A DNA stretch of 63,471 nucleotides, filler included, from Bonamia ostreae (taxonomy: Eukaryota), in the NCBI GenBank assembly GCA_040357525.1. It is 30 parts of 30 records of this genome, joined end to end, with 100 filler letters (N's around TTAATTAATTAA, not from the genome) between each part and the next. Parts side by side here need not be neighbours in the genome. Positions count along the whole stretch, not along the records: positions 2,136 to 4,168 come from JBDODL010001105.1; positions 4,269 to 6,301 come from JBDODL010001106.1; positions 6,402 to 8,433 come from JBDODL010001107.1; positions 8,534 to 10,565 come from JBDODL010001108.1; positions 10,666 to 12,696 come from JBDODL010001109.1; positions 12,797 to 14,826 come from JBDODL010001110.1; positions 14,927 to 16,955 come from JBDODL010001111.1; positions 17,056 to 19,082 come from JBDODL010001112.1; 22 more parts are not named here. One strand, given 5' to 3'. Positions within the stretch are counted from its first letter, which is position 1, and every line of letters begins with the position of its first letter. Under the pieces are notes generated by a model that worked only from the letters and a program-made list of their open reading frames with translations, searched no databases and was not told the DNA's origin. The translations under genes and the position numbers were made by a program. This document shows positions 2,609 through 63,330 of the stretch, piece by piece.

Positions 2609-4111
2609 ATGGATCAACTGGTTGAACTGTCGTTGACAGCGAAAACAGATTTCCATGCAAACAAATCTGGCTCAATTTACAAAATTGACGTTATTTGCTT
2701 TTCGCGGACTTTCACTTTATTTAAAAATTTCAAAGATTTTGTAGAATTTGATTCGATAGTTTTTTCAATTCATTTAAGCTTCGAAGCGTGTTTAAAAACA
2801 AAAACATTCCAAAACTTGGTATTTCGAGGTTACAAATTTTCGATCTTTAGAAACACTTCAAATTCAGACAAAGCGGCGATAATTCAGAGTTTGCCAATTT
2901 TTGATTTGCAATCAAAAAGGCTATTTAAACGGGATATCTTCGAACACCAAAATTTTGAGATCAGAGCCGTTTCAAAATTTTGTAGAGTTGCCCGCCGATC
3001 TTCGCGTTATGTTATTGATCAGACTTTCCGATAACGCTCTTTACAAAGACAACGATTCTAGCACTCCAGAAGATATCGTCGAAAAATTTTTACGCAAAAT
3101 AGACGGATCAAAATTTAAATTAAAAGAGCTCAAAAATTTTGAATATGAGTACTTTAATGAAAAGCCTCGTAGATTTTAAAATTTTTAGCTTAAAATTTTA
3201 AATTAGTCAAAAAATGTATTCGACCAATTATTTGGACAAATTTTTCAGATCTGGACAAAAAGTCGATCATAAGATTGTACAAAGGGTTCGGAATGTACAG
3301 CGGGTAATAAAAATTTTGATTAATTTAGTCTGCTAAAGATGTGCGGGGAATTTGGATTGGAAATGAATTTTGCTTTTAATGCGATCAAATTGCTATTCGG
3401 ATTAGTCGATATCGAGAAAAATAAAGGTTGTTTTCGCCATTTTTACGAAACTTTTGTTTTTGGTCATTTTATTCAAAATTTTTGTTTTCGCCATTTTTTT
3501 CAAAACTTTTGTGTTTTTGTCATTTTATTCAAAATTTTTGTTTTCGCCATTTTTTTCAAAACTTTTGTTTTTGTCATTTTTTTCAAAATTTTGTGTTTTC
3601 GCCATTTTTGAAAATTCAGTTTTTAATTTCGACGAAATTTTTTGCCGTTTTTCTATTTGAACGAAACAATAAAATTTTTCAAGACGCAAAATTTTATCTG
3701 GAGACATTGTGTAGTTTACCCGAAAACAATCTGAGAGAAATGAACATACACGAACACATTTTAAGCGAAAGAGGCACAAAGATAATCGCTTTTAAGCTCA
3801 TTTCGTTGATAAAGCCGTTCAAAAACAATTTTTTGGAAGTTTTCAAAAGCCAAATTTTAAATAATGTAGACATGTGTTAGCGATTTTTGGTGCAGAAAAT
3901 TATATTCTCGTTGGCAAGAAGTCCAACAAAATAAGAACAAGACAAATATTCGTTTTTAAAATTGCAAATAAAAATTGCCTAATTTTGACAAAAAAGAAAA
4001 AACAATTTTGAAAATGGCGAAGAACACAGAAAAGCTTAATTTTAAGCAATTTGTTGAACAAGCGATTAGTGAAATAAAAGAACTAAATAGTTTTAATCCC
4101 AAAAACGAAAA
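2609..4111 (+). CDS. PX (phox homology) domain protein, multi-exon, 3' truncated
   Basis: Spliced: IYKIDV...FTLFKNFKDFVEFDSI|LRSVFKNKNIPKL...IQ|SYLNGISSNTKILRSEPFQNFV, which fits the PX pattern. GT-AG introns restore the frame throughout. Confidence 0.6.
3428..3610. repeat. Intronic minisatellite (~55-nt unit built from ~27-nt subunits, GTTTTCGCCATTTTTTTCAAAAC...)
   Basis: Tandem copies begin right after the donor AAAG|GTTG at ~3427. Confidence 0.85.
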
Positions 4112-4268
4112 AGTTTAAATTTTTTTATAAATTAGTTCGTTTAATATGGTATTTTATATAAAAATTTGNNNNNNNNNNNNNNNNNNNNNNNNNNNNNNNN
4201 NNNNNNNNNNNNTTAATTAATTAANNNNNNNNNNNNNNNNNNNNNNNNNNNNNNNNNNNNNNNNNNNN

Positions 4269-6267
4269 TAACATTATTTACAAAAACAAACGGCGACGGA
4301 ATGTTCGGCGGAAAAGTCAAAGAAAATCTTGAAATCTTCATTCAAATTCAATATCCTCTAAACAAAGACATTCATTCAATGAAAGTCGATCTCGACGCGG
4401 AAAGACTTCCCGAAAAATTATCTTCTAAAAACAAATTCAATCGACCTAAATCACGATATTCCGTCCCAAAGTTATCTCGAAACAATGAGACCTCGAAAAT
4501 TTTGGATGACGGAAATGAAAAGTTTTCGCCGAGAAAACTAAATTTGAACGAAAACAAATTTATTGATTATTCTGTGAAACGACTCGGAAACGATCTTTTC
4601 AGAGTGAGGTACATCGCGGAAGTGCCTGGCAGATACAAACTTAACATAAAAATCAATAATGAATTGGTTGACAAATCTCCTTTTAATGTTGTCGTTGTTC
4701 CTGGAGACATTGTCAAAGTTTACGGAAAAGGCGTTGAAGGCGATCATATTGATTTTGGTTTATTTTGATTAATTGCTAAAAATTATCTAAAAAAATTGAA
4801 TTTTAACAAATCTGAAAATTTGTAAAATTATCGAAAAAAAATTTAATTTTATCAAAATATAAAATTTAGCCAAATTGGAAGAAGAAAAGTACAAACACGA
4901 ATTTACAATTGATTCTGGTCTCAAAATGGGCGGTTTTTCCGACGAAATTGATATTAAAATTCTGTCTCCGGCGAAAAGAGGAATTGACCATACGCTGCGG
5001 GATGTCGGAAACGGGAAATATAAAGTTTGTTATCAATCGGATGAGCAAGGAGAGCACTTAGTTGGGATAAGAATGTGGGGATTTGAAGTTCTTGATGTTC
5101 AGAAACCGATTTTTTCAAACAAAAGTTTAAAATTTTCGAGTGGCAAATTTGACTTTTTATAAAAACTTTTATTGAAGTATCGTCGCCTTTGGAAATTGCG
5201 AATGGCGTTTTATCGCTCAAATTGAACTTTAAAGATGTTTCCGGCGAACCGAAAATAACTGGTTCTTTAAATAAATTATTTGATTTTACGCAAATTCGGC
5301 CAAAAATTATTTGGTTTCAACGCAAAATTTACCAAAACATCGCAAAATTTAAGGCGGAGACAAAACAAGTGCGTTTATGACATTCAAAAACAGTACAAAA
5401 ATGCAAAAAATTGAAACAATCGACCACAAAAACGGATATTATTCTGCGAATGTCAAATTCCCAGAAAAACTCGATTCTGTTGTAAAAGGAAAAATCAATT
5501 TTATCGTTAATGACGATTCTTCGTTAAATCCTTTTTATTTTTGTCTATCGAACAACCCGTTTTTGCATTTTGACAGTGACGAAAAATTTGAAAATGATCC
5601 AAATCCGGAAAATGTCAAAATGGCGGAAAACGATCAAAATCCGGAAAATGTCAAAATGACGGAAAACGATATAATGGCGGAAAATTATCAAAATCCGGAA
5701 AATGTTAAAATGACGGAAAACGATATAATGGCGGAAAACGATCAAAATCCGGAAAATCGCAAAATGGCGGAAAACTATCAAAATCCGGAAAATCACAAAA
5801 TGGCGGAAAACGATATAATGGCGGAAAACGATCAAAATCCGGAAAACGACAAAATAGCGAAAAGAGACAAAAATATTGAAGAAGATGAAGATTTTGAAAC
5901 CGAAAACGATTCTATAGAAGAATGTGAAAATTCCGAAGAAGATTTCGCCAGAGACGAAATCCCTTTAAAACAAAAGACCGATTTTATTGACGAAAAGTCC
6001 GAGCAGAAAGAAACTAAAAACAATATTGATTCCGATATTAGCGAAGTAAAGTCCGAACAAAGAGAAAATTCGGATGTAGAAAATATCAAACCAAAAAATG
6101 AAGAAAGGAGACTAACAGAAGAGGAAGTAGTCATTACAGAACAGACGGAAAGTGCAAACGCGGTTCATTTGGACAGAAAAAAATCTTTTCGACTTTTGTC
6201 AAAATCGAACGATGACGAACCGAAAAAAGACAAAGAGAGAACGAGAAAATTATTTGATTTTTGGTGA
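4269..6267 (+). CDS. Filamin/ABP120-type Ig-repeat protein with acidic low-complexity tail, 5' truncated
   Basis: Motifs LGNDLFRVRYIAEVPGRYKLNIKINNELVDKSPFNVVV, KVYGKGVE, DVGNGKYKVCY and DHKNGYYS; three GT-AG introns. Confidence 0.75.
5588..5855 (+). repeat. Coding minisatellite (36-nt and 18-nt units; AENDQNPENVKM / TENDIM)
   Basis: Tandem AATCCGGAAAATGTCAAAATGGCGGAAAACGATCAA units inside the open frame. Confidence 0.85.
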
Positions 6268-61369: not shown

Positions 61370-61469
61370 NNNNNNNNNNNNNNNNNNNNNNNNNNNNNNN
61401 NNNNNNNNNNNNNTTAATTAATTAANNNNNNNNNNNNNNNNNNNNNNNNNNNNNNNNNNNNNNNNNNNN

Positions 61470-63330
61470 TGCTGCGTTTTGTAAAGAGACGTTAACTGAG
61501 ATTTTTGAAACGGCGAGACTCGACAACAAATTATAACTCGCGATTTTTCAAACAAAAATAACAACTTTTTCAATAGCAAAAAATTTTAGCCGTCTTTTTC
61601 ACGACAACAAAAAAATCGTTTTATCTTAAAAACCAGTTTTTGGAGATCATCAAAACGAGCCATTTTCTTTTTCTTGGGAAAAACGATATTTAGAACTCTT
61701 CCTGTAATCACCAAAGCTTGATCCTCGAAATCCCCTCTTTTCTGACAAATTTCTTCTTTCGCAAGCTCGATTTTCGATTTTATTATCGACCGTCCATCTT
61801 CATCCGAAACGTCTTCTTTCAATTCCAAAACCACCAAATTTGGACGACAAAGCATTTTCAACGTCAAAAGTCCGCAGCTTTTCGCTATATTTAAAGCTGT
61901 TTGCAGTTTGTCTCCGGTTAAAATCCAAATACCGATTCCAGCTTTTTTGAAGCAATCTAAAGTAGAAGAGACTTCGTCTTGCAATTTATCGTCAACAGCG
62001 GTGCTTCCTATTAGCTCCAAATCACTTTCCATTTCGTCGATCAAATTGTCGATTTGGAATTGGCTGTCGAAATGGAGTTTGGCTGTTTGGAAACGGTCGT
62101 TCCAGTTTTTGTATTCCAAATCCGTTATTTCTTTATACGCGCATACCAAAATTCGCAATCCTTTTTTAGAGAATTCCTTTTTATCGAATTTTGAAGATTG
62201 CAAATTTTTTATTTTTAACATTAAAATTAAAAAAATGTCAAATTTAACCGATTTTTATCAATTTTTTGTCAAAATTAAAAAATATAAAAATTTAATTGAT
62301 TTTAACAATTATTTTGTCAAAATTAAAAAATATAAAAATTTAACCGATTTTTAACAATTTTTTGATCAAATTTTAGATCAAAATTGAAAAAAATTAATAA
62401 CATTAATATCGTCATTAGTTTTACGCCAAAATAGTCGTTTTGAAGATTCATTTAATCTCTTAAAAATAACATCTTCGGCTCCTTTTACGTACAACTTGAT
62501 TTTCCCTTTTAAAACAAAAAATTGAAAAATTAACCATTTTTGCCATCTTTCACTAAAACAGAATTTCTTTTTCGCTCAGAATCAAAACTAAAACATTCCA
62601 TTATCTTTTTAGTTAAATATTTAAACTTTGTAGCGATATTTTTCTTTTCCGATCAAAATATCCAATATTTCGATCGCTTTTCCGGATTCTTCCGCATTCT
62701 TTTCAAAATATCTTTTCTTTTAAAGTTTTATAAAATTTGGTCAAATTTAAATTATTAAAATTGACGATACAAAAATAGCCGTGATTTTTGGCCATTATCA
62801 ACAAAGCTTTCTCGTCCGGAGATTCAGCTTGATATTGAATTTTACACGACGGAGTGTGTTCATGAGACGATCCATTTTCATCGCATTCCGGATATTCAGT
62901 TATAACTGTATGGCAAACTGCTAAAAGCGTCAAAAATTCGTTCGCCATTTTATCCCCGGATTTTAACAAATCTTTTAAGCTATCGCTAAAATAGGAGCGA
63001 GATTTTTCTTCTGAAAAATCGTTTTTAAATTCAGAATAATTTGATTTTTTCAACTTTTTACCGTTTTTTCTGTTTTCCGTTTGTTCAATTTGGTCAAAAT
63101 TATCAATAAATTTTTTCCCTCGAACGGAACAACAACTAAAAGCCATTTTGTTTTTAGTTAAAGTGCCTGTTTTGTCACAGAACATTACGTTGACTTGGCC
63201 AATTTCATCTGTCAGATTTGACGAACGTGTTTTCGCCATTTTTTTGTTGCTTCTCATTTCTTTATCTCTATTGATGTTAAAAGCGTGTATCAGTTTTGTC
63301 ATTTCCATTGTTATATATAAGGATATTGGT
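61470..63330 (-). CDS. P4-type ATPase (phospholipid flippase), internal fragment
   Basis: CDKTGTLTKNKM, LAVCHTVI, YQAESPDEKAL, FDSERKRNSV, GSTAVDDKLQDEV and IWILTGDKLQTA. Confidence 0.96.

Follow-up and report, generated by a model that had tools for sequence, protein, structure and literature searches.

Genes of Bonamia ostreae in the window studied here (the whole stretch of 63,471 bases, from assembly GCA_040357525.1) carry what we hold, with a probability of about 85%, to be genuine GT-AG spliceosomal introns of this parasite, with a U-run donor and an A/U-rich acceptor that are common to a short (19–29 nucleotides, nt) and a long (49–225 nt) size class. B. ostreae is a haplosporidian (Ascetosporea, Rhizaria) that parasitises the flat oyster, and is related to Mikrocytos. 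The introns show a 5' signal of G-U-U-U-(U/A) and a 3' end of (A/U)(A/U)(A/U)AG, position -3 favouring A or U over C. Because frame statistics equal those of decoys, the case rests on homology, public annotation and RNA. The window comprises 30 contigs of 2,002–2,035 nt apiece, ordered by length and joined via N44-TTAATTAATTAA-N44 linkers, with a per-contig GC content of 22%–47%; parasite and host-like contigs are mixed within it, as an earlier note on this DNA had already held.

Two tiers of introns were distinguished. Tier 1 holds 27 introns in nine genes: two seen in RNA, 11 ranked by profile (four of which agree with the public protein P0121 too), six placed by Pfam or PDB coordinates, and eight based on reading frame together with background knowledge of homologues. 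Tier 2 holds 22 short candidates, the basis of which is solely that long reading frames are restored in evident genes. RNA contigs were compared with contig 10 only (19183–21209). For three genes, all stop-free GT..AG chains with introns from 12 nt up to 130–230 nt were enumerated between a fixed start and a fixed end, and were scored by a profile built from each gene's homologues, the donor sequence beyond GT being given no weight. In the exon-coordinate test, single exons were searched one by one against Pfam and PDB.

Removal of a 21-nt intron is seen in RNA from the proteasome beta gene (contig 10, + strand). Two contigs of run X1 reach 20678 and then read AACAAAAAA, the nine bases 20700–20708 past the intron 20679..20699 (GTTTAG..TTAAG), the exons of which match PRE3 72–103 and the Proteasome profile 116–189. 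Run X1 holds RNA, since in its contigs a poly(A) run follows 21011, just beyond the stop codon of this gene. One X1 contig passes directly from 19756 to 19844 and lacks 87 nt, which on the + strand begin with CT and end with AC; the joint equals a GT..AG intron on the - strand with donor GTTTTT, namely the 87-nt intron of an ENTH/epsin-like gene (19759..19845, -; GTTTTT..TGAAG). Exact removal from polyadenylated mRNA was found for these two introns, 19759–19845 and 20679–20699.

The proteasome beta gene requires five introns of 20–59 nt, all on the + strand. Upstream of the one seen in RNA lie 20237..20259 (23 nt; GTTTAA..AAAAG), where with frame continuity the ATG exon is joined to an exon matching positions 5–25 of the Proteasome profile; 20327..20348 (22 nt; GTAATT..TTAAG) and 20438..20457 (20 nt; GTTCCA..TTTAG), both placed by frame continuity, neither exon beside the latter being confirmed when taken alone; and 20502..20560 (59 nt; GTTCAT..AAAAG), placed by frame continuity and by the next exon, which aligns with PRE3 72–103. 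The exon of 29 amino acids (aa) downstream of 20327–20348, taken alone, gave no family or PDB proteasome match, and only a chance MarR match in the PDB search. The last exon of the gene had no match at E<=1e-5 among public proteins of at least 173 residues, which is weak evidence. On the - strand, RNA coverage of the ENTH-like gene ends at 20017, short of a 20-nt candidate (20039..20058; GTTTTT..TTTAG) that follows a 7-nt first coding exon, and the removal of which gives an ATG-initiated frame. The start of contig 10 folds back on itself (19184–19536; arms 19184–19352 and 19368–19536, 89% complementary, with a 15-nt spacer); the RNA contig that covers the ENTH-like gene leaves the window sequence exactly at 19368, with a 255-nt loose end, and two of the three sub-threshold matches to Rfam that resemble microRNAs (miRNA) fall within this fold-back, which probably arose artefactually during assembly, at the end of the contig.

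Profile ranking and public annotation agree for the gene of farnesyl diphosphate synthase (FPPS; contig 15, + strand). The best of 9,537 models, scored with 43 homologues, has four introns and is letter for letter identical to P0121, a public B. ostreae protein (hypothetical protein/farnesyl diphosphate synthase, 303 aa). These introns are 30686..30705 (20 nt; GTTTAA..ATCAG), 30853..31014 (162 nt; GTTTTG..ATAAG), 31219..31238 (20 nt; GTTTTA..TTTAG) and 31337..31405 (69 nt; GTTTTT..TAAAG), so that introns of 20 nt are already public within the B. ostreae annotation. The last exon taken alone shows 99% identity to residues 191–303 of P0121. A hand model with 31347–31412 as the fourth intron lies 7.4 bits below the best one. 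A metagenome scan with P0121 returned one locus only, an unrelated FPPS at 33% identity.

For the beta subunit of Rab geranylgeranyltransferase (GGTase; + strand), the best of 1,116 models (50 homologues) reaches 466.3 bits with three introns: 49367..49386 (20 nt; GTTTAT..TTCAG); 49439..49459 (21 nt; GTTTTT..CAAAG), the exact acceptor of which is less sure; and 49562..49589 (28 nt; GTTTCT..TAAAG), which is kept in all 12 best models listed. Readings of the second intron as 15, 18 or 24 nt score 5–7 bits lower (15 nt: 5 bits). The 247-aa last exon (49592–50332) has no near-identical protein of 135–433 residues among the 120 listed, the best identity among the matches listed being 60%; this exon and its counterpart at the end of the proteasome beta gene hint that some multi-intron B. 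ostreae genes lack full-length public protein models. For a P4-ATPase gene (- strand), the best of 751 models (45 homologue fragments, at most four introns allowed) scores 219.2 bits. It contains 62717..62765 (49 nt; GTCAAT..AAAAG), for which a 67-nt alternative stands at 218.0 bits; 62605..62626 (22 nt; GTTTAA..AAAAG) and 62506..62534 (29 nt; GTTAAT..AAAAG), the exons of which match high-scoring segment pairs of the homologues; and a 225-nt gap counted as a single intron (62177..62401; GTTATT..AAAAG), which may be two introns and a small exon.

Exon coordinates place introns in four other genes. In an NAA20-like gene (+ strand), exon 1 aligns with NAT3 1–24, and exon 2 with NAT3 27–57 and human NAA20 29–56 (PDB chains). 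These adjoining positions fix the 19-nt intron 16443..16461 (GTTTTT..TTCAG) and rule out a 46-nt in-frame alternative with a canonical-looking GTAAAC donor, which would remove nine aligned residues. The second intron, 16553..16573 (21 nt; GTTTAA..AATAG), is placed by frame continuity, by the end of exon 2 at NAA20 residue 56 and by a known homologue; the third, 16704..16761 (58 nt; GTTGAT..TTTAG), by neighbouring exons that match Acetyltransf_1 56–88 and 98–116. Three exons of a DPM1-like gene (+ strand) match Glycos_transf_2 positions 1–36, 39–91 and 93–167; 41342..41364 (23 nt; GTAATT..TCCAG) lies between the first two and 41555..41633 (79 nt; GTTTGA..TAAAG) between the last two. Set against human DPM1, the protein is apparently longer by two stretches of ~7–10 residues inside exons (within 41366–41554 and 41900–41990), which may have been inserted or may be additional short introns that keep the frame.

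A cytidylyltransferase gene (+ strand) holds 33090..33144 (55 nt; GTTTCT..AAAAG), with neighbouring exons that match CTP_transf_like 3–73 and 76–133 and with another GTTTCT donor, also in frame, lying 6 nt beyond the first; and 33304..33353 (50 nt; GTTTTC..AAAAG), placed by frame continuity and a known homologue. A 21-nt candidate in the same gene, 32842..32862 (GTTATC..TAAAG), is in frame and free of stops; the sole argument for it is the length of known homologues, and it could instead be an insertion of seven residues. If it is an intron, no frame-based method can detect it, and cases of this kind would make intron counts too low. In an adenylosuccinate lyase gene (- strand), the exons beside 14360..14491 (132 nt; GTTTTT..ACAAG) match ASL_C 1–64 and 67–103, while 14223..14244 (22 nt; GTTTTA..ATTAG) is placed by frame continuity and the C-terminus of a known homologue; the 22-aa last exon, searched alone, gave no Pfam match. 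In the first single-exon Pfam set, four of ten exons were without a family and one more match (DUF220) looks spurious; in the second set, two of ten were without a family and one had coiled-coil noise only.

All seven introns that the earlier note had offered as examples proved to be GT..AG segments of 19–20 nt at their positions, and none was contradicted. That their removal restores conserved proteins is borne out by homology for four (16443–16461, 30686–30705, 31219–31238, 49367–49386); for the other three (20039–20058, 20438–20457, 43790–43809) the argument is reading-frame continuity. The "dozens" of short introns it had counted can safely be put at 16 supported ones plus up to 22 candidates.

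Tier-1 lengths fall into a short class of 16 introns (19 nt; 20 nt, four introns; 21 nt, four; 22 nt, three; 23 nt, two; 28 nt; 29 nt) and a long class of 11 (49, 50, 55, 58, 59, 69, 79, 87, 132, 162 and 225 nt). Fourteen of the 16 short introns measure 19–23 nt, 20–22 nt being commonest. The 19–25 nt given earlier is upheld as to the existence of a short class, and has to be widened in that this class reaches 29 nt and about four introns in ten are longer (49–225 nt). With 11 long introns in 27, lengths are not confined to the near-exclusive window of 2–4 nt below 25 nt that marks ultrashort systems. In 12 of the 16 short introns the length is not divisible by three, so that retention would shift the frame. 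Intron density in the modelled genes is 3–5 per gene.

Donors in tier 1 are GTTT (18), GTTA (3), GTTC (2), GTTG (1), GTAA (2) and GTCA (1), which places T at +3 in 24 of 27, A in two and C in one. Intron interiors are 81% A+T (T 0.44, A 0.37). Measured against interior T, the excess is clear both for T at +3 (binomial p=1.7e-6) and for TT at +3/+4 (GTTT 18/27; p=1.3e-7); the earlier note had named this comparison, and its observation of the donors holds. T at +3 recurs in every class of evidence (RNA 2/2, profile 10/11, Pfam/PDB 5/6, frame with known homologues 7/8) and in both size classes (short 14/16, long 10/11); tier-2 candidates have T in 15/22 and A in 7/22. Over all 49 introns, +3 is T in 39, A in nine and C in one, +4 is T in 32, +5 is G in two and +6 is T in 24; GTTT donors number 31/49. 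Across all 49, +3 holds 1.17 bits of information and +4 holds 0.71; the columns from +5 on hold ~0.45, near background.

The last three exon bases carry no AG consensus (49 introns). Position -3 of the acceptor (all 49) is A in 25, T in 19, C in five and G in none, giving mostly AAG or TAG; AAAAG is the most frequent ending in tier 1 (8/27). Over the 16 bases upstream of the acceptor A is about as frequent as T (49 introns), hence there is no pyrimidine tract, and nothing beyond a slight enrichment of A at -8/-9 hints at a branch signal (49 introns). A canonical GURAGU donor with a YAG acceptor and pyrimidine tract is not what is seen (+3 purine 9/49, +5 G 2/49). The minimal, non-canonical signals described in the earlier note are thereby confirmed: GT plus a T-run, no exon-side consensus, scarce G at +5, AAG or TAG acceptors and no pyrimidine tract.

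Other explanations of these segments have to be weighed against that of genuine introns with a shared signal. That they stay in the mRNA, and are pseudogene frameshifts, assembly errors or products of model fitting, is favoured by the finding that chance GT..AG segments restore frames as often as decoys do; the assembly is moreover very fragmented, with at least one fold-back artefact, and 22 of the 49 listed introns are frame-only. Such over-calling is barely credible for all that, since RNA contigs skip the 21-nt intron 20679–20699, the independent public protein P0121 uses two 20-nt introns exactly as modelled, profile scores rank the short introns above alternatives that number from hundreds to thousands, and paired exons fall on neighbouring stretches of Pfam profiles or PDB chains. 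It is likewise very improbable that T at +3/+4 mirrors the composition of AT-rich introns, with no donor code beyond GT. Interiors of 81% A+T and columns that from +5 on hold only ~0.45 bits, near background, would suit this explanation, yet interior A (0.37) nearly equals T (0.44) and A stands at +3 in only 2/27 of tier 1 and 9/49 overall; both binomial tests above speak against composition, as does the NAA20-like gene, where a GTAAAC donor 27 nt upstream, in frame, is rejected by the PDB coordinates. Recognition by spacing, in which GT and AG ~20 nt apart are defined by length and the T-run is incidental, had been put forward in the earlier note. Narrow size classes are usual in mikrocytids, nucleomorphs and heterotrichs (PMC10245619, in its accessible part), and 14/16 short tier-1 introns fall within 19–23 nt. 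As the main rule it is nevertheless weakened and now looks improbable: 11/27 supported introns have 49–225 nt, and 10 of these 11 start GTT, including the 87-nt intron confirmed by RNA. The sharing of the GTT donor by long introns makes recognition purely by length unlikely, and suggests that the signal is a property of the splicing machinery itself and does not simply follow from small size. Frame-keeping decoy GT..AG pairs ~20 nt apart are, besides, as frequent as real ones, so that spacing alone cannot specify sites.

Several points count against genuine introns with a shared donor, and are set out together here. The sample is nine genes on ~40 kb of parasite contigs. GT..AG ends were required of every candidate, other boundary types lying outside the search, so that the GT..AG ends of 49/49 introns reflect a selection criterion. 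RNA support covers only 2/27 tier-1 introns, with no RNA contig over 20067–20610, the site of the four further proteasome beta introns; and 8/27 are based on frame plus background knowledge of homologues. Frame-only tests, run on frame-reopening GT..AG segments and on shortest linking introns and with filters for low GC or for GC dips, find short GT..AG segments no more often than decoy dinucleotides and reveal no length peak, and two gene finders using dynamic programming with codon models missed the known models. Spliceosome loss in B. ostreae is not mentioned in the accessible part of the genome paper (PMC11069148). As to the frame-only methods, they are too noisy in AT-rich DNA, and their failure is no evidence against introns.

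We infer that the 5' site would be read mainly via its U-run. By analogy with other systems, U at +3/+4 could pair with an ordinary U6 ACAGA box (U-G wobble, U-A) where the usual A cannot, which weakens the need for an altered ACAGA box that the earlier note had envisaged; a GUUU donor would pair poorly with standard U1 (ACUUAC). The mechanism put forward in that note, a reduced spliceosome with altered U1/U6 pairing, is thus far plausible in part. Three fates of U1 suggest themselves from elsewhere. It may have changed along with the donor so as to match GUUU, in the manner of Entamoeba, a possibility that we entertain tentatively; that it keeps its standard form and tolerates mismatches, as yeasts and Giardia do, appears somewhat more doubtful; and its loss, or change beyond recognition, as reported for mikrocytids, seems unlikely. 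With Rfam, neither the gathering score nor a cut-off of E<=1 gave a match to any small nuclear RNA (snRNA) gene within the window. Nor does any Rfam family attain its threshold in the whole window, a permissive scan of which gave only three matches, all sub-threshold and miRNA-like, and no tRNA gene was found in it. In a parasite genome that is reduced and AT-rich, a bias toward deletion may have brought most introns to the shortest length that the machinery tolerates, and the A-rich AAG acceptors suggest a relaxed reading of the 3' site.

Tier-2 candidates are distributed over further genes. As ~20-nt segments that restore a frame by chance are about as frequent as real introns, this tier must include false calls. 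Seven candidates of 20–27 nt come from a greedy frame chain through a coiled-coil/RING gene on the - strand (1674–1699, 1407–1427, 1241–1260, 1134–1160, 1046–1068, 904–925 and 734–753), with donors GTTT (three), GTTG, GTTA, GTAT and GTAA. Four frame-only candidates on the + strand (51042–51064, 51272–51291, 52358–52378, 52674–52698) belong to a gene the 364-aa main exon of which is without a Pfam family. The 20-nt candidate 43790..43809 (-; GTTTTA..AAAAG) restores one long frame. Reading frame likewise suggests 3304–3328, 10309–10330, 13506–13528, 13825–13846 and 25034–25057 (+ strand) and 28452–28475, 44795–44816, 57590–57616 and 58490–58511 (- strand).

Other genes in the window were noted in passing. 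On contig 4, which appears to be host-like DNA mixed into the assembly, a kinesin-motor exon (Pfam Kinesin; ~7930–8030, -) has a pyrimidine-rich acceptor side ..ctttcctgcgttcatag| with CATAG, and the donor |gtaaat; the contig is without short introns, and the acceptor of this exon is of an ordinary metazoan style. The claim that host-type contigs use ordinary donors holds for this one exon (GTAAAT), to which the donor check was confined. Contig 9 (17056–19082; 46.5% GC) carries a fibrillarin gene (Pfam 350 bits, +) and a gene of 271 aa with collagen repeats (Pfam Collagen, -), both uninterrupted; no short introns were seen there. The collagen-like gene, the very short introns of the window and an RNA run labelled "mollusc metagenome" (X2), in which part of the sequence occurs, had suggested a dicyemid or myxozoan origin; this was rejected once P0121 proved to be a B. 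ostreae protein, and the mollusc label suits an oyster parasite. A DEAH-box RNA helicase gene of several exons on contig 23 (46734–48742, -), with a Helicase_C match and a DEVH motif in its translation, could, going by its sequence, encode a spliceosomal helicase. Tandem coding-like repeats include a phenylalanine-rich one on contig 2 (3400–3660) and an acidic one of the ENDQNPENVKM type in the long frame of contig 3 (5600–5900).

On how a spliceosome handles introns of ~20 nt, and on whether core snRNAs co-evolve when splice signals drift, B. ostreae offers an unusual natural experiment: its introns are dense, and short and long ones occur side by side within single genes under a common GUUU donor. 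Gene finders run at their default minimum intron length will break many B. ostreae genes, and for that reason haplosporidian gene counts and "missing" pathways may be biased.

Comparison with known systems is made here with the accessible parts of the papers cited. The B. ostreae genome has 12.24 Mb in 9,705 scaffolds (N50 1,417 bp, 33.3% GC) and a mean of two introns per mRNA, and is said to carry "canonical introns", as against the "few and very short introns" of mikrocytids (PMC11069148); for Ascetosporea generally, drastically reduced intron numbers and sizes are described (PMC13746701, 2026). In what is accessible of the Bonamia literature, no ~20-nt length mode, GTT donor or AAG acceptor was found; supplements and subscription journals may hold such data. 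The comparison with Mikrocytos drawn in the earlier note is apt because Bonamia is a fellow ascetosporean. In the mikrocytids Mikrocytos mackini and Paramikrocytos canceri, 217 of 224 introns have 16 nt and seven have 17 nt, and the snRNAs identified were U2, U4 and U6 only (PMC10245619). They share with Bonamia their place in Ascetosporea, marine invertebrate hosts, AT-rich reduced genomes and extremely short spliceosomal introns; they differ in that their introns are few, highly conserved in sequence and all of 16–17 nt, whereas those of Bonamia are dense and variable in their interiors, and a short class of 19–29 nt stands alongside introns of 49–225 nt (PMC10245619).

Entamoeba, an AT-rich parasite too, likewise has donor U at +3 and +4: GUUUGU donors occur in 88–90% of its introns, with U1 changed to ACAAAC, and U at +3/+4 fits an ordinary U6 ACAGA better than A does (bioRxiv 10.1101/2022.06.08.495308). 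Its motif is strict, with G at +5 in 97–98%, whereas that of Bonamia decays after +4 (+5 G 2/49); an Entamoeba-type donor with +5 G and +6/+7 U is thus not seen in Bonamia (+6 T 24/49), while U at +3/+4 is. Nor is Entamoeba described, in the accessible text, as having introns of ~20 nt, unlike Bonamia (bioRxiv 10.1101/2022.06.08.495308). Chlorarachniophyte nucleomorphs (18–21 nt) and heterotrich ciliates (15–16 nt) resemble Bonamia in a narrow class of GT-AG introns of ~20 nt or below; their size classes are almost exclusive, whereas Bonamia keeps a long tail (PMC10245619). Myxobolids and dicyemids, parasites as well, have median introns of 22–27 nt, reduced logos and weak A-rich stretches before AG with no pyrimidine tract, but are animals with a "GTa" donor, against +3 T in ~80–90% in Bonamia (PMC13644364, PMC6543705, PMC2222250).

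Speculatively, and with more doubt than confidence, haplosporidians might be a second independent lineage after Entamoeba with genome-wide donor U at +3/+4, the site being read via an ordinary U6 ACAGA and U1 being A-rich or non-functional; Bonamia would then be intermediate toward the mikrocytid system, and GTT/AAG an ascetosporean trait that predates the collapse in length. Neither ultrashort introns nor U-rich donors are unique to Bonamia; what is new is their combination in a lineage beside the mikrocytids, with both size classes present.

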